A stretch of 60,780 bases of DNA, the filler included. It is 6 parts of 6 records of this genome, joined end to end, with 100 filler letters (N's around TTAATTAATTAA, not from the genome) between each part and the next. Parts side by side here need not be neighbours in the genome. Positions count along the whole stretch, not along the records: positions 54,258 to 60,780 come from SRR31156797_25460; 5 more parts are not named here. One strand, given 5' to 3'. Below are positions 8,197 through 60,780 of this stretch, in pieces (positions within the stretch are counted from its first letter, which is position 1; every line of letters begins with the position of its first letter). The notes below the pieces were generated by a model that was not told the origin of the DNA, made no database searches, and saw only the letters and a program-made list of their open reading frames with translations. The position numbers were made by a program, and so were the translations under genes.

Positions 8197-8296
8197 NNNN
8201 NNNNNNNNNNNNNNNNNNNNNNNNNNNNNNNNNNNNNNNNTTAATTAATTAANNNNNNNNNNNNNNNNNNNNNNNNNNNNNNNNNNNNNNNNNNNN
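8197..8296. other. Artificial contig spacer
   Basis: N run, TTAATTAATTAA (stops in all six frames), N run; 100 nt in total. Confidence 0.98.
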
Positions 8297-17730: not shown

Positions 17731-17830
17731 NNNNNNNNNNNNNNNNNNNNNNNNNNNNNNNNNNNNNNNNNNNNTTAATTAATTAANNNNNNNNNNNNNN
17801 NNNNNNNNNNNNNNNNNNNNNNNNNNNNNN
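17731..17830. other. Artificial contig spacer
   Basis: N run containing TTAATTAATTAA. Confidence 0.98.
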
Positions 17831-36350: not shown

Positions 36351-36450
36351 NNNNNNNNNNNNNNNNNNNNNNNNNNNNNNNNNNNNNNNNNNNNTTAATT
36401 AATTAANNNNNNNNNNNNNNNNNNNNNNNNNNNNNNNNNNNNNNNNNNNN
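36351..36450. other. Artificial contig spacer
   Basis: N run containing TTAATTAATTAA. Confidence 0.98.
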
Positions 36451-48729: not shown

Positions 48730-48829
48730 NNNNNNNNNNNNNNNNNNNNNNNNNNNNNNNNNNNNNNNNNNNNTTAATTAATTAANNNNNNNNNNNNNNN
48801 NNNNNNNNNNNNNNNNNNNNNNNNNNNNN
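48730..48829. other. Artificial contig spacer
   Basis: N run containing TTAATTAATTAA. Confidence 0.98.
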
Positions 48830-49195
48830 GGAGTAAAAAATTGCATTTGAAATATACATCTCGTGGGAGATGGGTATACGTGCCTGATTCAATTGTTTCT
48901 GGAGATTTTCATAGCTGGATTTTCTCTCTTTAATCTTATCTCCGATTATTGTAAAAGGAATCTTTTTCAGTATATTGATATACAATTGTGCTTTTTTAGC
49001 ATATTGTTCTGTATCAAAACTTTTCCTGCGCTTTTTGCTTTTAGATTTTTTATCCTGGCCTGCATCTTCGGTGCTTGTCACCTGAAGGTCAGGAGTTTCC
49101 GCTGAAACAATCTCTTCATGATCGTCTTCGATCATTTCATCCGGAGTTTCTTTAATATCAGTCACGCTATCACACCGGTGTTCAGACGAATCCAA
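48830..49195 (-). CDS. Archaeal type II secretion/type IV pilus membrane platform protein (FlaJ/TadC-like), N-terminal part
   Basis: LQKQLNQARIPISHEMY pattern; overlaps the ATPase stop. Confidence 0.7.
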
Positions 49196-51248
49196 ATTTC
49201 TTCAGAACCTTTTCAGGAGTTGACTGATAAGCATTGATAATATCAGATATCTCCTGGAAATCATTGATGCCAGTGTTTACCATATGTTCCAGTATCTTCT
49301 GGCGATAGTATAATTCCTGGTCAACCTTGCCCTGGCCCCAACCACGTCTCATCTTAATGTCGAAAAGAGCTTTGGACTCACCTGTGCGGATGAACATGTC
49401 GGACTCTGAATCCCATACGAAGATATCATTTGTCCTGATGTTCCTTGTATTTGGATCAATGTCAACGATCTCTACTAGTTTGATGTTCCTTCTGACACGA
49501 TTACCTTTGGTATAGGTCTGAGACTGGATACTCATAATGTCAAGTGCCTGTATCATTGTACGGGGTACGCTTATAGGTGGGTTTTCAAGTCTGTGAATTG
49601 CAGATGCTACAGAGTCGGCGTGCATGGTTGAAAATGTTGTGTGACCTGTTGACATTGCCTGGAAAAGTGTAAGTGCTTCTTTACCTCTTACTTCACCGAC
49701 AAGCAGGAATTCAGGTCTCTGTCTTAGTGCAGCTTTTAGCAGGTCATACATGTCAACTGCACCCCTTTCATCTGCAGTAAATGAGTCTCTTGTGATACTC
49801 GGGATCCAGTTTGGATGAGGTAGTTTCAATTCCCTTGTATCTTCAAGGGAAATGACCTTGGCTTTTTCAGGAATAAATAGTGAAACAGCATTAAGTGACG
49901 ATGTCTTTCCGGAAGCAGTACCTCCGGCGTATATCAGACTCTTATTGTTTTCAATGCACAGCCACAAATATGCCATTGACTCGGATGAGAAGGTTCCCCA
50001 TTTAATAAGGTCTACAGGCGTGATTGGTGTATCACTGAATTTACGGATGGTAAAAGTACTTCCATGTGCAGTCACACTTGTACCAAGTGTCATCTGTATC
50101 CTTGAGCCGTCCGGCATTGTTGCATCAACCATGGGCTCTGCAACTGAGATGTGTTTTCCACTTCTCTGTGCCATCTGAATAATGAAAGAATTCAGTTCGT
50201 CTTCCTTATAAACAATATTAGTAGCAATGTTATGGTGTGACCGGTGATAAAGGAAAATTGGTACGTCATGTCCATTGCCTGACACATCCTCAATGGAATC
50301 ATCCATCATCAGTGCATCTATCTTTCCAAATCTCACAAAGTCCCTTTTGATGTAGTATGAGATTTTTTCAAGCATAGGTGGGGTAATCTCTATGGTATAA
50401 TCCTGTATAATTGAACGAATCTTTGAATCAAGGACAGCTTCTTTGTCATCGTCTTCCTCATCGATCTCCTCAACGAGTAATACATTTCTTAACCTGTCCT
50501 TTATCTCGAGAAGGAATGTATGTTCAAAGTTGCTAAGTTCCGGTTCAACTATATAATAAAGATGTGAGTTCTTATCGTCATTAAATAATATAGTAATAAA
50601 TGCGTAAGGTTCGTTTACCCAGTAGCGCTCAACTTCCTCATAGCCTTCGATTCCTTTAAACTCAGTTATAGGGCCATGAATTTCCGGATCATAAGGTATG
50701 ATCTCAAGTTCTTTTTGCTTAAAGAGCTCTTTGATCTTTTCAATTGTACCTTCCTTTTCCTTCTTTTTCTCTTTTTGAGCTTCTTCTCCGGTTACTTCAG
50801 AGGCATCAGATAATTTTTCTTCATCAGACAAACTGCTTTTTTCCTCTTTTTCTAAAGCAGGAATCATCTCCTCTTTTTCTTCTTCAATTGAAGTAGCATT
50901 TTCTTCTTTTTCAGGGCTTACTTCGTTTTCAGCAATGGCAGGTTTTTTAGGAGGACCGAAAACAGGCGACTTTGGCAACAGGATTTCAATTTCCTCTTCA
51001 TTTATATCTTCCTGCTGTTGCATAGTGTCTGCATCTTCTTCTTCCTCTGAAGGCATATCTTCTGCATTTTCAAGGATGTGTGCAAAGTCTTTTTCAAACT
51101 TTTCTTCATCTTCCTTTATTTTTGATATTTCTTCAAGGATGCTTTCTGTTTCATCATCAGAAATCTCATTGTCCTCTATTTCATCACTCTGCATACCATC
51201 ATCCTTTTCCCCGTTTTCTTTTAACGAAGACCCTTCACCTTGTAGCAC
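49182..51248 (-). CDS. Archaeal type II/IV secretion ATPase (FlaI/VirB11-like) with an acidic N-terminal extension
   Basis: YWVNEPYAF, FTIRKF, GGTASGKTS Walker A, SLEDTREL, LRQRPEFLLVGEVRG, TGH...STMHA. Confidence 0.93.
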   Translation of the reverse strand: MLQGEGSSLKENGEKDDGMQSDEIEDNEISDDETESILEEISKIKEDEEKFEKDFAHILENAEDMPSEEEEDADTMQQQEDINEEEIEILLPKSPVFGPPKKPAIAENEVSPEKEENATSIEEEKEEMIPALEKEEKSSLSDEEKLSDASEVTGEEAQKEKKKEKEGTIEKIKELFKQKELEIIPYDPEIHGPITEFKGIEGYEEVERYWVNEPYAFITILFNDDKNSHLYYIVEPELSNFEHTFLLEIKDRLRNVLLVEEIDEEDDDKEAVLDSKIRSIIQDYTIEITPPMLEKISYYIKRDFVRFGKIDALMMDDSIEDVSGNGHDVPIFLYHRSHHNIATNIVYKEDELNSFIIQMAQRSGKHISVAEPMVDATMPDGSRIQMTLGTSVTAHGSTFTIRKFSDTPITPVDLIKWGTFSSESMAYLWLCIENNKSLIYAGGTASGKTSSLNAVSLFIPEKAKVISLEDTRELKLPHPNWIPSITRDSFTADERGAVDMYDLLKAALRQRPEFLLVGEVRGKEALTLFQAMSTGHTTFSTMHADSVASAIHRLENPPISVPRTMIQALDIMSIQSQTYTKGNRVRRNIKLVEIVDIDPNTRNIRTNDIFVWDSESDMFIRTGESKALFDIKMRRGWGQGKVDQELYYRQKILEHMVNTGINDFQEISDIINAYQSTPEKVLKKFGFV

Positions 51249-52732: not shown

Positions 52733-54157
52733 ATGCCCATTATAACCTTACCATACGATGACCTCGAAGAATTAACAGGAACAGACAAGGACACTATTAT
52801 TGAACGCGTACCCATGATCGGGGCTGATATCGAGCGTATTGAAGAAGAGTCAATTGATATCGAATTCTTCCCTGACCGCCCGGATCTTTACAGCGTTGAA
52901 GGTGTGGCACGTGCAATGCGGGGTTTCCTTGATATTGAAACCGGTTTCTGCGAGTATGAGGTAAAACCTTACACTGTGGAGATCAGCAAAGATGAAAAAA
53001 TCGATTCTGTACGCCCTGTATTTGGATGTGCCATCGTACGTGGTGTAAATTTTAGTTCCAGTGCTATCAAGACACTCATGGACCTGCAGGAGTCGCTCCA
53101 CTGGGGACTTGGACGTGACCGAAAAAAGGTATCAATAGGTGTCCATGATCTTTCAAAGGTACAGGCTCCTTTCCGCTACATTGCAGCGGACCCTGATTTT
53201 AGTTTTGTTCCTCTTGATTTTACAGAGCCTATGACCATGAGGGAAATACTTGAGAAGCATCCAAAGGGAACACGCTTTGCACATATACTGGATGGTTTTG
53301 ACAGTTATCCCCTTATCCTTGATGCTAATGACAACGTTCTTTCTTTCCCTCCGATTATTAACGGTACACTGACAATGGTCACTGAGGATACCACTGATCT
53401 TCTTGTTGATGTCACGGGCCTTGGTAAAGAAGTGTACACGGCTCTTAATATAGTTACTACTGCCCTTGCTGAGCGTGGAGGGGACATAGAGTACGTTAAG
53501 GTTATTAATGCAGAAGGTACTGAGTCCATTCCTCTTGATCTGAGTGGCAGGGTAAAGGTACTGGAAAGATCAGAGATAGATTGTCTTATTGGTATGGAAC
53601 TTCCAGTTGAGGAAATTGTAAAGCAGCTTAACAGGATGGGCTTTGGTGCAAAAGAACTTGATGACGGTCGTATTGAGGTTATGATACCACGCTATCGTGC
53701 TGATATACTTGACAATTCCGATATAATTGAAGATATAGCAGTGGGTTATGGTTTTGAGAAAATCCCTGCAGTATTCCCAATGAATGCAACTGTAGGTAAA
53801 TCCCATGAAATCTCTGACATAAGTTCGGACATGAGAGAGATTATGACAGGTCTTGGGTATTCCCAGGTTATGCCGTTCACTCTTACAAGTGGCAGGGTGC
53901 ACTTTGACTGGATGTGCAGGGAACAGACAGATGATGTTACTCATGTATTGCACCCCATAAGTGAAGACCAGACAATAGTCAGGACAACAATACTGCCAAA
54001 CCTCCTGGAAATTCTTTCCATGAATCAGCACAGGGAGCTTCCCCAGCGTATATTTGAGGTTGGAGATGTTGTTATTAATGGAAATAACGGTTTGCACATG
54101 GCAGCTGTATCTATCAATGCCCAGGCAAATTTCACTGAAGTAAGGGAGCTTGTTGAA
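52733..54157 (+). CDS. pheT: Phenylalanine-tRNA ligase beta subunit (archaeal type), truncated
   Basis: [36 protein letters not shown]...[18 protein letters not shown]. Confidence 0.96.
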
Positions 54158-54257
54158 NNNNNNNNNNNNNNNNNNNNNNNNNNNNNNNNNNNNNNNNNNN
54201 NTTAATTAATTAANNNNNNNNNNNNNNNNNNNNNNNNNNNNNNNNNNNNNNNNNNNN
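54158..54257. other. Artificial contig spacer
   Basis: N run containing TTAATTAATTAA. Confidence 0.98.
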
Positions 54258-54362: not shown

Positions 54363-54481
54363 AATACTGTACCTCAGAGCAGCTACCCTCCCGTTAGGCC
54401 TTATAGTGCTATAATAATTACAACAAGATAAAAGCATTAACCAAAAAGATCTTTCCGATGTATGAAACCTGTTAGCAGATA

Positions 54482-55441: not shown

Positions 55442-56245
55442 TTAACAAGAAGAGCCCCCCCTTTCTCCCACAATTTCATACTCCAAACAAGAAAACATAC
55501 CGAACGGCTCACCTAATAATAGCTCACCCTCCCCCACTCCTTGGTCCAAAATGTCTTTGGAACATTCATATTTTGCCAACAGGAAATTTCTGGAGGATTG
55601 AAAAATCTGCAACCAACTTAGCACGTGTTTCTGGAAGGCATCGCCGGTGATGACGACAGGGATACCCCGCATCCTGACATCAGTGAACCTATCGTTGTGA
55701 AACAAAGTCCAGAGTTGCCGTCCAATAGTCGCAGCACCCAGGTTGCGGCGCACAAGATTAAACAATCGTTCCCAAGCAGGGTATGTTGGGTAAAAAACCC
55801 AGTTATCAAAATCCCCGTCCCGGACGATGACGTGGCCACCTTTGCGTGTCACTCGCATGGCTTCGCTCAGGGCCAAATCGCTATCCACCAGATGCATTAA
55901 TAGATGTCGACAATAAACTATGTCGAATTCCTGATTGCAAAATGGTAAGGCATAGGCATTGCTTTGCAGGAAGCTAACGTTGCTCCCTCCTTGAAAAGGA
56001 GCCGAACAAACCGCCCTCCGAAGAGTGCTGGCGTTGTTGTCGAGGCCGATGACCTCACCGCCGGGATTAATGTGGAGCGCAATCTGTCTCGCTATTGAGC
56101 CGGGGCCGCAACCAATGTCGAGCACTCTGGTGCCGGGGTACAGGTATTGAAAAAGCAATTCCTCTTTTTGGAGGGTCGCCTTTTCCATGATATCGTCATG
56201 AATGTCTCGCCTAATCGTCCGGCCTGGAGTATAGGTATCATCCAT
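55442..56245 (-). CDS. Class I SAM-dependent methyltransferase
   Basis: VLDIGCGPG motif I, IGLDNN, NAYALPF, FDIVYCRHLLMHL, RVTRKGG; ATG 56245 overlaps the upstream stop. Confidence 0.9.
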   Translation of the reverse strand: MDDTYTPGRTIRRDIHDDIMEKATLQKEELLFQYLYPGTRVLDIGCGPGSIARQIALHINPGGEVIGLDNNASTLRRAVCSAPFQGGSNVSFLQSNAYALPFCNQEFDIVYCRHLLMHLVDSDLALSEAMRVTRKGGHVIVRDGDFDNWVFYPTYPAWERLFNLVRRNLGAATIGRQLWTLFHNDRFTDVRMRGIPVVITGDAFQKHVLSWLQIFQSSRNFLLAKYECSKDILDQGVGEGELLLGEPFGMFSCLEYEIVGERGGSSC

Positions 56246-58679
56246 AGGCTTCGACTCTGGAGGCAAAATGTTGCATTGCATCTGGCTCTTCGTCTAAAAG
56301 CTCAAAGAAACGATCAAAAATACCTTTCCAGATCTGGCATTGATAAGTTACTTCAGAGGGCATGTCATCGCGACCGAAGCGGAGCCTGTTTAGGACAGGA
56401 CAACGTCCACACCATGGTCGATAGGCGCAAGGTCCGCACCGTTCTTCCGTAATAAGCGAGGCCTGCCTGAGCGCCCCTGTTTCCGGGTGGTGTAGTATGT
56501 CCTCATACGAATGATGCAATACATTGCCCAGTACGATTTGGCCACTGAGTCTCGCCTCATCACATGGGTAGATGTTTCCCTGTAAATCATAGGCAATCTG
56601 GCCCCGAACACAGCCGCAGGGGCTAGCCAAATCCACGAATCCTGGATCTTGGGCCAACATGATTTTACGGACCAGAATTTCGGAGGCCCTGTCCCAGATA
56701 AGAGAGCCTTGCGCTTGGTGGGCCAAACAGCGACGAAGGACACTCTTCCAAAAATAGCTGTAAGTCGTAGGATCCAGACCCACGGCATTCCAGTTATTTT
56801 CTGCCTCACCCAACGGGGCCACCGGGTTGAGGCCGAAGCGATACAGTGCCAGTTCGGCAAAGTTGTCCACTATCTCTTCGGGCTGGGCCAGCGCGTCCCG
56901 GGTGACAACCATCAGAGTACCTACATTCACATGCCGTCGCCGAAGCTCACGGATCGCTTGCACGACCTTGGCGTATCCCGATCCGTGATTTCCCTGCGTC
57001 CTGTGCTTGTCGTGTATGGCTTGCGTACCATCAAGCGAGGTGGTAACGGTCATTGGCCAGGCGGCAATCTGGTCCGCAATTATAGGGGTAAGCATCGTCA
57101 GGTTACTAACCAAGCGGAAACTGATCTGCTTGCCGCTGTCTATGACGCGTGTCATGATAGCTTCGACGAAATACTTCATGGCTGGGAAGTTGAGTAGCGA
57201 CTCGCCGCCTTGGAACTCTATGCAAACGTCGGCGGACGACGAGGCCAAAATAAAATCTGAAATTTTATCCATGACATCGTGACGCTCTTCGCCATTGATT
57301 GGGGGCAGTGCCCCACGCCGGGCCGAGGCGGCGCAATAAGTGCAGGTTAAATTACATCGGTCGGTCAATTCAATGATGTGCAACGCGGGACGCCTATTGG
57401 CGAAATAGTCGGAAAAGCATGCTTGACCGGTAAGCGGGACGCGGTTCTGCTGTCTAAGTTCGCTCCCCTTCACCAGTTCCCACTGGCCATTTTGATCAGA
57501 GGAAACGTTCAGCGTGCCAATAACTCGCCGATAAGGTAATTCAGTAGAATTGATGGGAAGGACCATTAGGGTAGGGTCCGCACGAAGAGCCTTGACGAGA
57601 GCCTGGAGGCAAAAAGCGGTGGTGACGGCTTTGCTGGCATACGTAAGGTCACCGTCCTTGGTCGCCAGCTTGATAAACGGCGAACCCTCCCAAGATCCGT
57701 TGACCGATTGAGCCGCAGCCAACCATGCGGCCGCCTGCCTCTTTTCCTCGTTGCAGCCTGGGATGGCTACAAGCGAAAGCAATCCCAGGGCTGTGCTGAG
57801 CGGCTCACTTTTCGTTTCGCCCCAACCACCGTTCAGCAAACGGGAACCACATAAAAAACGCTGTGCGCGTTCTATGGACTTAGATGCACCGCCGAAATCC
57901 GCAAGAAAGGTCAGGGCACGGTAGGTCCCGTAGAACTTTCCCCAGTACCACTTGCTGGGCCAGAAACCTTCGTCCGTCTGAGACGAGGTAAGATAGCGGG
58001 CACCGGCAACGATCTGATGCCTGTAGCGCTCCGGGTCGTAAAGGGCCAAACCCCAGAGCAGATTGGCCACCACTTCGGGAGACACTCCACGGCCGCCAAT
58101 GACCTGGATATACTCGCGCATTGCGGCTGCAGCCGGCGATCTATCGGAGGGGTCAACCACCCAGGTCTCGATGGAACCATCAGGGTGCGAACCGTATTTG
58201 AATACAAGGTCGATGGCCTCATTGCAGAGAGAGGCAAGTTGTTTGCCGCCGGTGCGGGCCAGGAGTTGCAAGATCAAGCCGAGGTCATCAGCGTCAGGCG
58301 GTAACTCCCGGAGGAGGGGGATATAGCTCCAACCTCCCACAACGTCAGGGTGCTTGGCCTGCAAAAACGCCACAATTTCTGTTTCCGCTAATTTTTTGGT
58401 GATGCGCTGATCAAAGTCAGCACAATCCAGCAAGCTGTCGAGGATCAACATCCGCGGGAATAGCCATGCCGGATAGGTCTGATAGACAACCTGCTCTGCC
58501 CTCCCCACCGGCAGAGTGAGATAGTGGACTGCCTCGGGATAACCCTTGGCGTTTTCGTTCAGCAGGAAGGACACCCCTTGGCGGAGAATCCGACGCAAAT
58601 CGATGTTCAGACGCATAGGTTTGCTACGAGGCGCGGTGGTTTGAGAAGAACTGAGCGGCTCTATCATGCGGTCAGCCAT
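56238..58679 (-). CDS. Fusion: single-domain class II terpene cyclase (DxDD, QW repeats) + HxsB-like radical SAM/SPASM maturase
   Basis: GGWSY...PDADDL (DADD 58284-58295); QTDEGFW, LNGGWG, QSVNGSW repeats; CNLTCTYC (57333-57356), IEFQGGESLLNF, DLASPCG...YPCDEAR, CxxCx5CxxC SPASM. Start may be ATG 58667 (ATGA overlap). Confidence 0.88.
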   Translation of the reverse strand: MADRMIEPLSSSQTTAPRSKPMRLNIDLRRILRQGVSFLLNENAKGYPEAVHYLTLPVGRAEQVVYQTYPAWLFPRMLILDSLLDCADFDQRITKKLAETEIVAFLQAKHPDVVGGWSYIPLLRELPPDADDLGLILQLLARTGGKQLASLCNEAIDLVFKYGSHPDGSIETWVVDPSDRSPAAAAMREYIQVIGGRGVSPEVVANLLWGLALYDPERYRHQIVAGARYLTSSQTDEGFWPSKWYWGKFYGTYRALTFLADFGGASKSIERAQRFLCGSRLLNGGWGETKSEPLSTALGLLSLVAIPGCNEEKRQAAAWLAAAQSVNGSWEGSPFIKLATKDGDLTYASKAVTTAFCLQALVKALRADPTLMVLPINSTELPYRRVIGTLNVSSDQNGQWELVKGSELRQQNRVPLTGQACFSDYFANRRPALHIIELTDRCNLTCTYCAASARRGALPPINGEERHDVMDKISDFILASSSADVCIEFQGGESLLNFPAMKYFVEAIMTRVIDSGKQISFRLVSNLTMLTPIIADQIAAWPMTVTTSLDGTQAIHDKHRTQGNHGSGYAKVVQAIRELRRRHVNVGTLMVVTRDALAQPEEIVDNFAELALYRFGLNPVAPLGEAENNWNAVGLDPTTYSYFWKSVLRRCLAHQAQGSLIWDRASEILVRKIMLAQDPGFVDLASPCGCVRGQIAYDLQGNIYPCDEARLSGQIVLGNVLHHSYEDILHHPETGALRQASLITEERCGPCAYRPWCGRCPVLNRLRFGRDDMPSEVTYQCQIWKGIFDRFFELLDEEPDAMQHFASRVEAYG

Positions 58680-59782
58680 GAGTAGACGGACATCTTCCCA
58701 AAGCTCAGGACCTCTTCGCGGACGGCAGCGGGCGCGGTTAACGACACGAGGCGATCCTCGAGTTGGCGCAGGAGTCCGCAGAGGTCCTCGGCCGTGCCAA
58801 TGATGCCCTCACGGATACGACCCTCAGGAGGAGTATCCCGGTTCGTGGTCCGCAAGCTGACGTAGCTTGGCGTTCCGACGCGGATGTCTTTGGCGATGTC
58901 TGATAGGTCGTCAGCCAGCCAGAAGATGCGGCCCAGGGTGTCACAGATATCCAGGACAGCCTCCTCTTGTGCTATATGCTCATGAGGGCTGGCAAGATGA
59001 GAAAGCAGGGCGATGGTTGTGGTGGGCCGCGCAGACTTACAGGAAAGAATTTCGAACCAATCGTCGTGCGTCAAAATCGGCGTTTGGCGCGCCGTGGTGG
59101 TCTTCAACTCAGCCTCGTAGAGCTGGTAAAGTAATGTCTGAACCCGCTGCCAAGTCAACCCATCCGCATGCATCCGGTATAGGTCTTTGCAGCTCTCGGT
59201 AAAGGCAACGATGGATCGCAGAAGAAACTCTTCCACGGGTCCAGCACATCTCAACCGATCCGCCAAACCCTCCAACGGAACTCCCTTGGACACATCCAGC
59301 AGCTCCGCCAACCAGTCTGAACTCACGAGTGTGAACAAATCGCTGCCGGTAGGTAGTTCATCGACGACATAATCAAAGAGAGCAATCCCCATGTTGAAGA
59401 TGGCAGCGGCCAGCGCTACTTGATTGGAAATGTTGCCGGCCCCAAGCCGGAGCCCATGGATAAGTCTTCCCTGAGTGTAGCCGAAGGCCAGCATGCCGGG
59501 CAAGCGTTCCCACAAAAAAGGATGATACTGTTGAATCTCGTTCAATAACCCGTCGAGGGGCAAAGCGCAGGCCTCATATGCCCCTGGCAACTCGGCCGCC
59601 AACAAACGGCGGCCGAGGTTACTTTGGGCATCTTGGTGGTCTAAGAAATGTTGGTACGGTACGTAGAATCCACGCTCAAGTACCTCCTTCCAGACAAACT
59701 TCCTCGTTAGGACGTCGTTAACGTACAAAAATTCCTTCATAGCCACCGTTTTCCCTATAGTAATAATTTCCTCTAAGTCCAA
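58664..59782 (-). CDS. Class I isoprenoid-synthase-fold protein (ComQ-like prenyltransferase or terpene synthase)
   Basis: All-helical; first acidic motif LFDYVVDE, SCKSA, second motif WLADDLSDIAKD. Start TTG 59782 or ATG 59740. Confidence 0.7.
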   Translation of the reverse strand: MDLEEIITIGKTVAMKEFLYVNDVLTRKFVWKEVLERGFYVPYQHFLDHQDAQSNLGRRLLAAELPGAYEACALPLDGLLNEIQQYHPFLWERLPGMLAFGYTQGRLIHGLRLGAGNISNQVALAAAIFNMGIALFDYVVDELPTGSDLFTLVSSDWLAELLDVSKGVPLEGLADRLRCAGPVEEFLLRSIVAFTESCKDLYRMHADGLTWQRVQTLLYQLYEAELKTTTARQTPILTHDDWFEILSCKSARPTTTIALLSHLASPHEHIAQEEAVLDICDTLGRIFWLADDLSDIAKDIRVGTPSYVSLRTTNRDTPPEGRIREGIIGTAEDLCGLLRQLEDRLVSLTAPAAVREEVLSFGKMSVYSWLTA

Positions 59783-60024
59783 CCACTGGAATGGCCACTA
59801 CTATGCGGCACATGCTTGGTTAGATAGACAAAGTACTTATAGTAATTATCGGTCGCAATCCATCGGCCATTCCGCCCCGGAGCGCTGACGGTGATGGTCG
59901 CGTTGAGATTGCACCACACCCAGTAGACCCCGTTGCCGAAGTTAGAAAAATTGTGCCCTGGGAAAGTAGCGTTAGTGATAACTACTCCGTCCTCTGATCT
60001 TCGGACTTCAACATAGAGACTCAT
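59773..60024 (-). CDS. 83-aa putative precursor/substrate protein with a His-Ser-Ser repeat and penultimate Trp
   Basis: Strong SD AAGGAGGT (60031-60038), ATGA overlap with the upstream gene, C-terminus KHVPHSSGHSSGWT. Confidence 0.75.
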   Translation of the reverse strand: MSLYVEVRRSEDGVVITNATFPGHNFSNFGNGVYWVWCNLNATITVSAPGRNGRWIATDNYYKYFVYLTKHVPHSSGHSSGWT

Positions 60025-60497
60025 ATATCGACCTCCTTCCCGGAAATAGCTCGCTCGATTTCCTCTCTTTTGTACCCTATGCCTCCGCTGTCAGGCATGG
60101 TGGCAGGTCCTTTGAAAGCGAGAACGGCCTTAGGGATGGGAGGTGCTTCTTCAATGGGGACTTGCGTTCCCATATCAGAAGCTTTGTGCTGAAGCTTCAT
60201 GAGTTCAGCTGCTTTGTCAAAAAAGTCTTCAGAAGTGTTAATGGGGAAATAATAGGCAGGAATTCTGCGTTTTAGAACCGCCATTTCCACTTCTTCGTCT
60301 CTCATGGCAAGCCGTTTTTGGGAGCCTAATTGTTTCTCAAGATCAGCGAAGGACTGAATAGGGAACTTGATCTTGTTAGCCAAGTCCTGTAACTCCATCA
60401 TGTCCGAAAGTGCAGAGATAGTCTTATCGCCTTCCGGGTGATGACTCAGGAGGTTTTTCAACTTTTCTACCTCTCCTGGTTTGAATTCGATAGGCAT
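60021..60497 (-). CDS. Hypothetical protein with two FPI.S/T..D/E repeats (MTH865-like)
   Basis: SD AAGGAG before the ATG; KFPIQSFADLEKQL and YFPINTSEDFFDKA; first gene of the operon. Confidence 0.7.
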   Translation of the reverse strand: MPIEFKPGEVEKLKNLLSHHPEGDKTISALSDMMELQDLANKIKFPIQSFADLEKQLGSQKRLAMRDEEVEMAVLKRRIPAYYFPINTSEDFFDKAAELMKLQHKASDMGTQVPIEEAPPIPKAVLAFKGPATMPDSGGIGYKREEIERAISGKEVDI

Positions 60498-60780
60498 TTA
60501 GTTTCTCCTTTTTTTTGCCTTATGGTTTTTGGTAATACTCGACTATCAAGTTTTTTTCTAATTGTTTGATATTATTAAGTGTTAATCGAATCTTAATAAA
60601 AGATGAGTGTTTTTGTAAATTTTTCTGTCCTACGAGAAGGACATTTCCAAGCCCAATGTTTACAACGGTTTAAAAAAAACTTGATAATTGAGTATTAATG
60701 CAAATCTTTAAAATCTAATGACTAACACTACAGCGTCCCTTGTCTTTTTTGGCTACCGACATAACGCGGGACAGTTTGAC

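Follow-up and report, generated by a model that had tools for sequence, protein, structure and literature searches.

The question raised by this locus is why a protein of only 83 amino acids, ending in two His-Ser-Ser-Gly (HSSG) units and a penultimate Trp, should be encoded among terpene-type and radical S-adenosylmethionine (SAM) enzymes. Its gene lies on the minus strand of the window, i.e. the whole 60,780-nucleotide stretch of DNA analyzed here, in a cassette that also encodes an MTH865-like protein, a 372-amino-acid protein (P-like protein below), a fusion of a terpene cyclase domain with a radical SAM/SPASM domain, a methyltransferase, and a polyprenyl diphosphate synthase (Table 1). 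To our knowledge, terpene-decorated ribosomal peptides were first reported in 2024, and few have been characterized. On balance we consider it probable that the 83-amino-acid protein is the substrate of a six-gene cassette for a peptide made ribosomally and modified after translation (RiPP) that yields a terpene-peptide hybrid, the folded body of the protein serving as leader and its tail being modified; we call the cassette ChrPC-like on the description of ChrPC in a review (PMC13290415) and not on the ChrPC sequence. The system is best filed as a PC-type terpene-RiPP in which both the folded precursor family and the joining of the cyclase to a radical SAM domain are new, the His-Ser repeat being a clade-specific add-on. 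The findings that carry this are a real and conserved gene, the predicted fold of its product, a conserved Trp, the gene partnership, the catalytic motifs, and a co-variation between tail and tailoring enzymes.

The 83-amino-acid open reading frame (ORF) is a real, conserved gene and more than a product of chance, because homologues were found: 4 close ones of 84–87 amino acids in a word-indexed search, 10 matches in an exhaustive phmmer search of which 8 were small proteins of 78–88 amino acids, and 39 in a profile search. The search for homologues and the alignment of their tails that had been suggested when the gene was first annotated were carried out and gave a combined family alignment of 42 sequences of 78–92 amino acids. 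The protein begins MSLYVEVRR and ends KHVPHSSGHSSGWT, with Trp as residue 82 of 83. F21, Y34, and A48 are invariant in the alignment and ten more columns, including that of Trp82, are at least 90% conserved. Translation bore out the two HSSG units and the Trp second from the end described in the initial annotation, and the strong Shine-Dalgarno sequence and translational coupling noted there are both present, with GGAGG 7 nucleotides upstream of the ATG (60022-60024) and that ATG sharing ATGA (60021-60024) with the stop codon of the upstream ORF. The two HSSG units are written in different codons (CAT AGT AGT GGC vs CAT TCC AGT GGT), and the repeat is therefore held at the protein level rather than being a recent duplicate by DNA slippage. 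The family is rare. Among 401 sampled genomes of the phylum of one of the related genomes (L003, below) the index genome was the sole true match, and the same was found among 401 sampled genomes of the phylum of Acidipila; the one other match in each set was weak and lay within a protein of more than 1,100 amino acids. No Pfam or NCBIfam family, HxsA included, matched the 83-amino-acid protein (NCBIfam at E ≤ 0.1), there was a weak CBM_25 match (E 6e-4) for one homologue (L004), and the ESM Atlas gave no usable match.

When the last 22 residues of all 42 sequences were compared, several tail types could be distinguished. A His/Ser linker occurs in 13 sequences, which end in G-[W/Y]-T or GGW and of which 11 have at least two H-[S/T] pairs; nine have a poly-Pro linker with the ending (G/S)(G/S)-W-A (the GWA clade); 18 end in Cys-Trp-Ser, 13 of them behind a poly-Pro run and several as C-x-C-W-S; and two are odd, with VGGW and RRRWV. 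A Trp near the C-terminus is present in 40 of the 42 and is replaced by Tyr in two (P0002 and P0004); it comes after Gly, Ser, or Cys, and in nearly all members 0–1 residue lies beyond it. What stays constant in the tail across the family is a Trp at or beside the C-terminus with a small residue before it, and the linker takes three clade-specific forms, of which HSSG is one. In the His/Ser clade the repeating unit has a period of four and reads H-S-x-x, and its third residue may be Ser, Lys, Gln, or Asn; HxS is therefore not the invariant. Of the conservation expected for the tail in the initial annotation, the Trp was upheld (40/42) and the HxS or HSSG motif was not (His/Ser linker in 13/42, poly-Pro in most others). 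A further view of the tail came from a contig of an RNA library labelled marine sediment (sample X2), a match that attests presence in the library rather than transcription, its level, or transcript ends. Over the 287 bases of 59773-60059 this contig departs from the window at 15; the 13 differences listed inside the ORF give 9 amino-acid changes, all at residues 9–71 and none at residues 72–83, and in this one contig the tail is conserved where the body drifts.

The body of the protein was modelled with AlphaFold2 (AF2) on the family alignment. The model has a mean predicted local distance difference test score (pLDDT) of 89.4, a predicted template modelling score (pTM) of 0.74, and six strands across residues 2–68, with pLDDT of 53–67 in the last 13 residues. 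An all-against-representatives structural search of this model placed the SusC N-terminal extension (NTE) domain 9hfj at the top (Z 10.9, root-mean-square deviation 2.0, 74 of 80 residues aligned), followed by carboxypeptidase D with its transthyretin-like domain (5aq0, Z 8.8; 1qmu, Z 8.6), and Foldseek also gave 9hfj (E 1e-3, query-normalized TM-score 0.74). We are confident that residues 1–70 are predicted to fold as a carboxypeptidase-regulatory/transthyretin-like beta-sandwich with a disordered tail, and the beta-sandwich proposed at the outset from the letters of the sequence is in this way corroborated by AF2, Foldseek, and the structural search, all for a predicted model.

Cross-links of the triceptide type, which the initial annotation had proposed for aromatic-x-Asn triplets in the body, fared differently. 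The three triplets, at positions 26, 29, and 37, are a number expected by chance (3 observed, 1.33 on average when the sequence was shuffled 20,000 times, P(≥3) = 0.125). F26-x-N28 is kept in 26 of the 42 sequences, comprising all 13 of the His/Ser clade and also 13 of the 29 others, and the other two are kept in 9 and 4 of the 42. All three lie in the confidently folded body and none in the disordered tail, and in the three loci of non-His/Ser members that were examined there was no radical SAM enzyme. A triceptide precursor would be expected to have a conserved aromatic-x-Asn motif in its modified core, this one does not, and the idea found no support. Of the broader proposal of a folded leader presenting a doubly modified core, the folded body stands, and the tail does co-vary with the tailoring enzymes, as described below; HSSG-HSSG is not a conserved core and the triceptide idea is unsupported.

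The gene partnership was read at seven loci: the window, L001 and L002 (metagenome contigs), L003 (a metagenome-assembled genome, or MAG, of Melioribacteraceae), L004 (the cultured strain Acidipila rosea DSM 103428), L005 (an Acidobacteriaceae MAG), and L007 (a Deltaproteobacteria MAG); an eighth, L006 from a Gemmatimonadaceae MAG and of the Cys-Trp-Ser clade like L004, L005, and L007, was too short to read. The L001 copy of the small protein stands outside the family alignment. A search of genome contigs with the single 83-amino-acid protein as query gave no locus. The genes for the MTH865-like protein, the small protein, the P-like protein, and the class II cyclase are kept at all seven, with the MTH865-like gene directly upstream of the small gene, and a methyltransferase is present at six, the contig of L001 stopping inside the cyclase gene. 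The methyltransferase gene lies behind the fusion gene in L003 and in L002 it is upstream, adjacent, and on the opposite strand. The order MTH865-like gene, small gene, gene for a protein of about 370 amino acids, and gene for a fusion of about 800 amino acids recurs in L001 (cut inside the fusion), L002, and L003, and homologues were in this way found near similar fusion enzymes at three further loci, as had been anticipated. In L004, L005, and L007 the P-like protein and the cyclase are joined in one protein of 726–736 amino acids; the 372-amino-acid protein aligns over its full length with the N-terminal half of these, and their C-terminal half is 43–50% identical to the cyclase part of the 813-amino-acid fusion. 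That one clade encodes P-like protein and cyclase as a single protein and the other encodes them as two is a Rosetta-stone link, and it speaks for joint action of the two.

The same comparison showed that tail chemistry follows the type of tailoring enzyme. All four loci with the radical SAM fusion have small proteins with H-S-x-x-H-S tails (PHSSGHSSGWT in the window, PHSKSHSSGGYT in L001, PHSKSHSNGWT in L002, and EHSKSHSSGGWT in L003). The cassettes of L004, L005, and L007 contain a bona fide polyprenyl synthase (176–183 bits), a methyltransferase, a nitroreductase-family dehydrogenase, and a YcaO cyclodehydratase. Their small proteins have poly-Pro tails ending in CWS in 3/3 (...NCSCWS in L004), and the H-S-x-x-H-S tail occurs in none of these three azole-enzyme loci. 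SagD and SagB models were scored in L004 only (SagD 209.7 bits, cut-off 219.25; SagB 85.6 bits, cut-off 78.4), and L005 and L007 have YcaO and nitroreductase equivalents at the level of Pfam. Azole-forming enzymes of the SagD/SagB type act on Cys residues of peptides. The MTH865-like protein of L004 contains no Cys, and the small protein would therefore be the substrate in L004 and, by homology, at the window as well. Both clades share the terpene modules and the Trp, and as constant partners of the family the terpene enzymes point to Trp as the main site of modification. The clade with a single Cys ending in NCWS had no locus in the genome contigs. Two other genes were observed beside the sister cassettes. 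A DUF6065 protein (about 296 bits), for which a literature search gave nothing, is encoded in all three Cys-Trp-Ser cassettes and in none of the His/Ser cassettes (L004 6645-7508, L005 6605-7426, L007 14508-15518), and just past the cassette on the opposite strand there is an Amidohydro_2 gene in L004 (14648-15892, minus) and L005 (14680-15702, minus), possibly for a processing enzyme and possibly unrelated.

The P-like protein belongs to a small family, with seven further proteins. Five Asp residues are invariant in 13/13 sequences and fall in two motifs, D137-x-x-x-D141(-E) and D291-D-x-x-D295-x-x-x-D299. The AF2 model is all-alpha (pLDDT 88.9, pTM 0.88), its fold matches include geranylgeranyl diphosphate (GGPP) synthase 1wy0 (Z 19.7, 283 residues aligned) and epi-isozizaene synthase (Z 19.3), and the farnesyltransferase of free Trp, Ord1, was among the Foldseek matches (target-normalized TM-score 0.62). 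We infer that this enzyme is a Trp prenyltransferase. As listed, its ORF starts at a TTG that overlaps the last codons of the small gene; because homologues have 360–373 amino acids and residues 1–17 of the model have pLDDT below 50, the true start is probably Met15 (ATG 59738-59740), leaving a gap of 32 nucleotides behind the stop codon of the small gene.

The cyclase domain of the fusion has LPPD[AT]DDLG in 6/6 sequences and two QxxxGxW motifs. Its closest solved relatives are the monodomain cyclases 8pak (E 1.8e-13) and 8paj, and its profile also matches squalene-hopene cyclase (2e-20), the "prenylcyclase" 6ij1, and MstE. The radical SAM part scores 287.1 bits on the NCBIfam model HxsB (cut-off 370), with the next family at 114.6 bits, and those of L002 and L003 score 319.5 and 297.5 bits on the same model. 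CNLTCTYC occupies residues 442–449 and CGPCAYRPWC residues 748–757 of the 813; the CxxxCxxC motif is conserved in 4/4 fusion proteins and the SPASM cysteines are readable in the window, L002, and L003, the contig of L001 ending earlier. With folds, Asp motifs, CxxxCxxC, and SPASM cysteines intact, the enzymes of the cassette look active, judged by their sequences. In PADLOC the fusion matched nothing beyond generic radical SAM models of the viperin type, and there was no match for the other three proteins.

The remaining three proteins of the cassette are the methyltransferase, the synthase, and the MTH865-like protein. The methyltransferase has a full-length homologue in the same place in L003 (28% identity over 232 amino acids). 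For the synthase, the best-scoring bacterial NCBIfam models are FPPsyn (237.3 bits) and CrtE (213.6 bits), both below their cut-offs, and it is likely the supplier of a farnesyl diphosphate (FPP) or GGPP donor; the GC content of its gene is 0.363 vs 0.465–0.549 for the other five genes of the same 6.5-kb contig. The Pfam MTH865 match was below cut-off in five loci, above it in L005, and missing in L001. Complex prediction suggests that the MTH865-like protein may be a binding partner of the 83-amino-acid protein, with an interface score (ipSAE) of 0.43 (0.43, 0.48, and 0.43 in the separate runs) vs 0.00 for the best control, contact agreement of at least 76% among runs, and a partner pLDDT of at least 71. 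When the mark was calibrated, 51 of 78 solved complexes attained it, as did 2 of 108 mismatched pairs; in the range of scores at or below 0.60, in which this pair falls, only 5 of the 78 solved complexes and all 4 passing mismatches (of 180) attained it, and the prediction lends weak support to this partnership.

We infer every chemical step of the pathway, the acceptor residue, the length of the donor, and any removal of the body afterwards, and events might run as follows. The beta-sandwich body (residues 1–70) would serve for recognition, as a "leader" module, and the MTH865-like protein may hold it. FPP or GGPP would come from the adjacent polyprenyl diphosphate synthase, the 372-amino-acid class I enzyme would ionize the diphosphate and alkylate the indole of Trp82, and the DxDD class II cyclase domain of the 813-amino-acid protein would then protonate and cyclize the prenyl chain. 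The fused HxsB-like radical SAM/SPASM domain would modify the His-Ser repeats of the linker, and the methyltransferase would add a methyl group.

Comparison with known systems supports this assignment in part and also brings out differences. ChrPC-type maturases and steromaze were reportedly described by Hubrich et al. (Chem 2024;10:3224). In the literature searched, which did not extend to Hubrich et al. 2024 and its supplements, where such clusters may be listed, neither the precursor family nor the cyclase-radical SAM fusion is described. Steromaze appears as the name of a terpene-RiPP hybrid product in an excerpt of PMC13647313. According to section 2.4 of the review PMC13290415, all characterized peptide prenyltransferases resembling trans-isoprenyl diphosphate synthases (ComQ, PalQ, and the P domain of ChrPC) target Trp, and the review also states that the C domain of ChrPC cyclizes the attached prenyl group, that PalQ prefers a C-terminal Trp preceded by Gly, and, in section 2.4, that a Gln just before the second Asp-rich motif is the hallmark of Trp recognition in ComQ, PalQ, ChrPC-P, and Ord1. 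The cassette resembles ChrPC in that a P module with the isoprenoid-synthase fold and a C module that is a class II cyclase work together (as one fused protein in L004, L005, and L007), the ribosomal substrate has a conserved Trp, and a polyprenyl diphosphate synthase is encoded in or next to the cassette, as also in L004, L005, and L007. It differs in that P and C are separate genes in the clade of the window, with C fused to an HxsB-like radical SAM/SPASM domain, in that Trp or Asn stands at the position of the hallmark Gln, and in that the substrate is transthyretin-like with its Trp one residue from the C-terminus, whereas the target of ChrPC is an internal Trp in the excerpted text of PMC13290415.

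PalQ and ComQ provide a parallel for the acceptor, with a Trp at or next to the C-terminus, a favorable Gly before it (GW, GGW), and an enzyme of the isoprenoid synthase superfamily, and PalX resembles our protein in having a large folded leader, of the nitrile hydratase leader peptide (NHLP) type, as described in part of PMC10853753. In contrast, residues after the Trp abolish the activity of PalQ (excerpt of PMC13290415) and most members here carry one; cyclase, radical SAM, and YcaO partners are unmentioned for PalQ and ComQ in the excerpts of PMC13290415 and PMC10853753; and the Gln hallmark is missing here. In the HXS antiphage system, as far as the excerpted parts of PMC13128918 describe it, HxsB, HxsC, and HxsD mature HxsA with a gain of 8 Da at an SHRSS motif, the responsible enzyme and the chemistry being open. 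The window shares with it a radical SAM/SPASM domain nearest to HxsB and a His/Ser-repeat tail, which in several members of the clade reads S-H-S-S and resembles SHRSS. However, the six proteins of the cassette include no HxsC, HxsD, or second radical SAM enzyme, the substrate fits no NCBIfam model, HxsA included (predictors of signal peptides and peptidoglycan-binding domains not having been run), there are two or three repeats of period four as opposed to five HxS repeats of period three in the HxsA studied (same excerpts), and the domain is fused to a terpene cyclase and scores below the curated HxsB cut-off. The monodomain cyclases (8pak, 8paj, 6ij1, and MstE 6sbb) are similar in consisting of one alpha-alpha toroid (about 350 residues), in having an Asp-rich motif that aligns at the same place, and in their QW-type motifs, but in the present family a radical SAM domain (or, in the sister clade, the P-like protein) is joined to the cyclase domain, which is encoded beside a ribosomal substrate, and 8pak has DADS where the window family has D[AT]DD. 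Azole enzymes as in the thiazole/oxazole-modified microcins (TOMM), a SagD-type YcaO and a SagB-type dehydrogenase, stand beside the small protein ending in ...CWS in the sister clade; they are absent from the clade of the window, where a radical SAM domain takes their place.

Several observations weigh against the terpene-RiPP assignment. By the fold search, prenyltransferase and class I terpene cyclase cannot be told apart (Z 19.7 vs 19.3), and the P-like family lacks Gln directly before its second Asp-rich motif, which reads IFW(L/I/R)xDD with Trp at that position (Asn in L003) in 6/6 sequences. With 287 bits the radical SAM domain falls short of the HxsB cut-off of 370, and the action of HxsB itself is not settled. 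No protease or exporter was found among the genes of the cassettes scanned, leaving removal of the leader without a candidate enzyme. Tyr replaces Trp in three members (P0002 and P0004 of the 42 and the L001 copy), and the GWA clade (9/42) and the members ending in ...GGW have no gene context that could be seen, a search of genome contigs for the GWA clade having been empty. There is no mass, product, or activity on record for any member of the family, and only artificial spacers connect the 6.5-kb contig of the cassette with the rest of the window.

These observations have to be considered together with three other explanations. In the one closest to the initial annotation, the protein would be an HxsA-like radical SAM substrate that receives two His-x-Ser modifications and triceptide cross-links in its body, the Trp being of minor importance. 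That the radical SAM domain scores far better on HxsB than on the next NCBIfam family (287.1 vs 114.6 bits), that His-Ser repeats occur in 4/4 loci with the HxsB-like domain and 0/3 without it, and that the HXS modification was mapped to the SHRSS motif of HxsA (excerpt of PMC13128918) would all be expected if this were so. Yet the His/Ser linker is confined to 13 of 42 members, with poly-Pro instead in most others, the repeat is H-S-x-x of period four with a variable third residue, no NCBIfam family including HxsA matches, the cassette has no equivalent of HxsC or HxsD, the aromatic-x-Asn triplets are at chance level (P = 0.125), two of three poorly conserved and all in the folded body, and the constant terpene-enzyme partners would go unexplained; we think there is little chance that this is correct. 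It could also be that the genes form an ordinary pathway to a small-molecule terpenoid in which the small protein, rather than being a substrate, plays an accessory part, for example as a carrier that binds lipids, a chaperone, or an immunity protein. This would not account for the co-variation of the tail with peptide-specific enzymes (SagD/SagB-type enzymes with Cys tails in 3/3, HxsB-like domains with His-Ser in 4/4), a disordered tail with a conserved [G/S/C]-W-x is hard to explain in a binding protein, and precursor genes typically have, as the small gene does, a strong Shine-Dalgarno sequence and a place right in front of the enzyme genes. An accessory role therefore seems improbable to us, even with the general knowledge that transthyretin-like beta-sandwiches can bind ligands, the equal nearness of the P-like fold to class I terpene cyclases and prenyltransferases, the absent Gln hallmark, and the absence of a protease or exporter from the cassettes scanned all in its favor.

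An alternative that retains the same chemistry is that the protein is modified as in the pathway above and never cut, the product being the whole beta-sandwich protein with a terpene tail, i.e. a form of protein lipidation. None of the cassettes scanned encodes a peptidase or a peptide exporter, the body is well packed with high pLDDT and is followed by a Pro-rich or His/Ser spacer before the Trp, as in tethered lipoproteins, and the clade-invariant residues of the body exceed what a leader would need. Against it, the body has no obvious function and no signal peptide was seen (no signal-peptide predictor having been run), large folded leaders that are later removed are known, e.g. the NHLP domain of PalX in the excerpted text of PMC10853753, and a protease may be encoded elsewhere, the cassette contig of the window having only 6.5 kb; we regard retention of the body as rather unlikely. 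Extending this idea, we would tentatively, and at the level of conjecture, entertain a system of protein terpenylation in which a folded transthyretin-like protein receives a cyclized C15 or C20 terpene on Trp and a second modification, on His-Ser, from the fused HxsB-type domain. If true, the C-terminal prenylation of eukaryotic proteins would have in it a bacterial counterpart that acts through Trp and a polycyclic lipid, and the enigmatic chemistry of HxsB would gain a second, simpler substrate.

The terpene-RiPP assignment has several implications. The family would be a new kind of substrate, with a beta-sandwich of 70 residues, a spacer, and [G/S/C]-W-x, and the fusion of a cyclase to an HxsB-like radical SAM domain would be a new enzyme layout. 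The family provides a natural experiment in which one scaffold and its terpene enzymes are combined with three tails, of which His-Ser goes with radical SAM, Cys is matched by azole enzymes, and Gly-Trp-Ala has partners unseen. The pairing of His-Ser repeats with the HxsB-like domain would offer a short, soluble substrate for HxsB-type chemistry, which was left open in the 2026 paper on HXS defense. The sister cassette is in the cultured Acidipila rosea DSM 103428, where the prediction is directly testable.

Table 1. Coordinates of the cassette and its features in the window, and of the sister cassette in a cultured strain (aa, amino acids).
Feature	Position	Strand	Basis
MTH865-like protein, 158 aa, invariant P-x-YYFP motif	60021..60497	minus	Pfam MTH865, alignment
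Shine-Dalgarno sequence AAGGAGGT of the putative precursor gene	60031..60038	minus	direct reading of sequence
Putative precursor gene, 83 aa	59773..60024	minus	ORF and translation, 42 homologues, AF2 model, fold matches
Predicted beta-sandwich body, residues 1-70	59815-60024	minus	AF2 and fold matches
Predicted disordered tail, residues 71-83	59776-59814	minus	AF2
HSSG-HSSG linker, residues 74-81	59782..59805	minus	clade-specific H-S-x-x repeat
Trp82 codon	59779..59781	minus	near-C-terminal aromatic residue conserved across family
Stop codon of the putative precursor gene	59773-59775	minus	
P-like protein, 372 aa, class I isoprenoid-synthase fold (predicted)	58664..59782	minus	weak polyprenyl_synt match, homology, AF2
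P-like motif DYVVDE	59357-59374	minus	
P-like motif DDLSDIAKD	58886-58912	minus	
Fusion, 813 aa, SQHop_cyclase_C + Radical_SAM + SPASM	56238..58679	minus	Pfam, NCBIfam, alignment
Fusion motif CNLTCTYC	57333-57356	minus	
Fusion SPASM cysteines	56409-56438	minus	
Class I SAM-dependent methyltransferase, 279 aa	55442..56281	minus	Pfam; homologue in L003
Trans-polyprenyl diphosphate synthase, 292 aa	54482..55360	minus	Pfam polyprenyl_synt, 156.3 bits
Sister cassette L004, Acidipila rosea DSM 103428	contig NZ_SMGK01000001.1, 21226-37465		

The setting of the cassette within the window has a bearing on its host. Five blocks of the form N44-TTAATTAATTAA-N44 (8197-8296, 17731-17830, 36351-36450, 48730-48829, and 54158-54257) are artificial six-frame-stop spacers joining separate contigs. 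The window is a concatenation, with the cassette contig at 54258-60780, and assignment of the cassette to a host therefore rests on binning. An ORF for the beta subunit of phenylalanyl-tRNA synthetase (PheRS; 52733-54205) is cut by a spacer. A contrast in GC content (0.50–0.59 vs 0.33–0.44) was not taken as a sign of transfer of the cassette into the genome, as it may reflect binning; a GC contrast persists inside the 6.5-kb contig, at the synthase gene. Another contig encodes an ATPase of the FlaI/archaellum type (49182-51248, minus; 403.8 bits, cut-off 550) with a very acidic N-terminal extension of 200 residues, and other contigs of the window encode type IX secretion system (T9SS) sorting domains, a SpiroCoCo coiled-coil protein, and a GGDEF protein. 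An archaeal host, considered from the FlaI-like ATPase and the form of PheRS, was dropped in view of the T9SS, SpiroCoCo, and GGDEF proteins. The bin looks bacterial, and the cassette contig is linked to it only across artificial spacers.

At and upstream of the small gene, a scan of 59600-60780 gave three promoter-like sites (1.5 ± 1.4 expected), one of them at 60619-60590 on the minus strand, and no terminator. An inverted repeat of 34 nucleotides (60533-60566 and 60664-60697, 82% complementary, spaced by 97 nucleotides) lies in an AT-rich stretch upstream of the MTH865-like gene. Rfam gave no RNA family in the window at the gathering score and none on the cassette contig, including its ends, at E ≤ 1.

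Relatives of the cassette were also present in other samples. A contig of 6,522 bases from sample X1, which is probably the source, spans the cassette contig whole, and contigs 90–99% alike from two further studies (X2 in one, and X3 and X4, both DNA runs labelled marine, in the other) cover parts of the cassette; gaps in this cover in X2–X4 do not speak for absence. In four runs the summed depth at both ends of the cassette contig (54300-54516 and 60593-60780) is far above that of the interior, and there are many loose ends at 54401-54410 and 60745-60750. A contig of 590 bases from X1 links 54410-54469 to 60745-60777 through 85 other letters, by matches that are short (one side being 33 bases) and about 90% alike. 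These observations hint at a repeat family present at both ends of the contig or at a version of the site that is free of the cassette.

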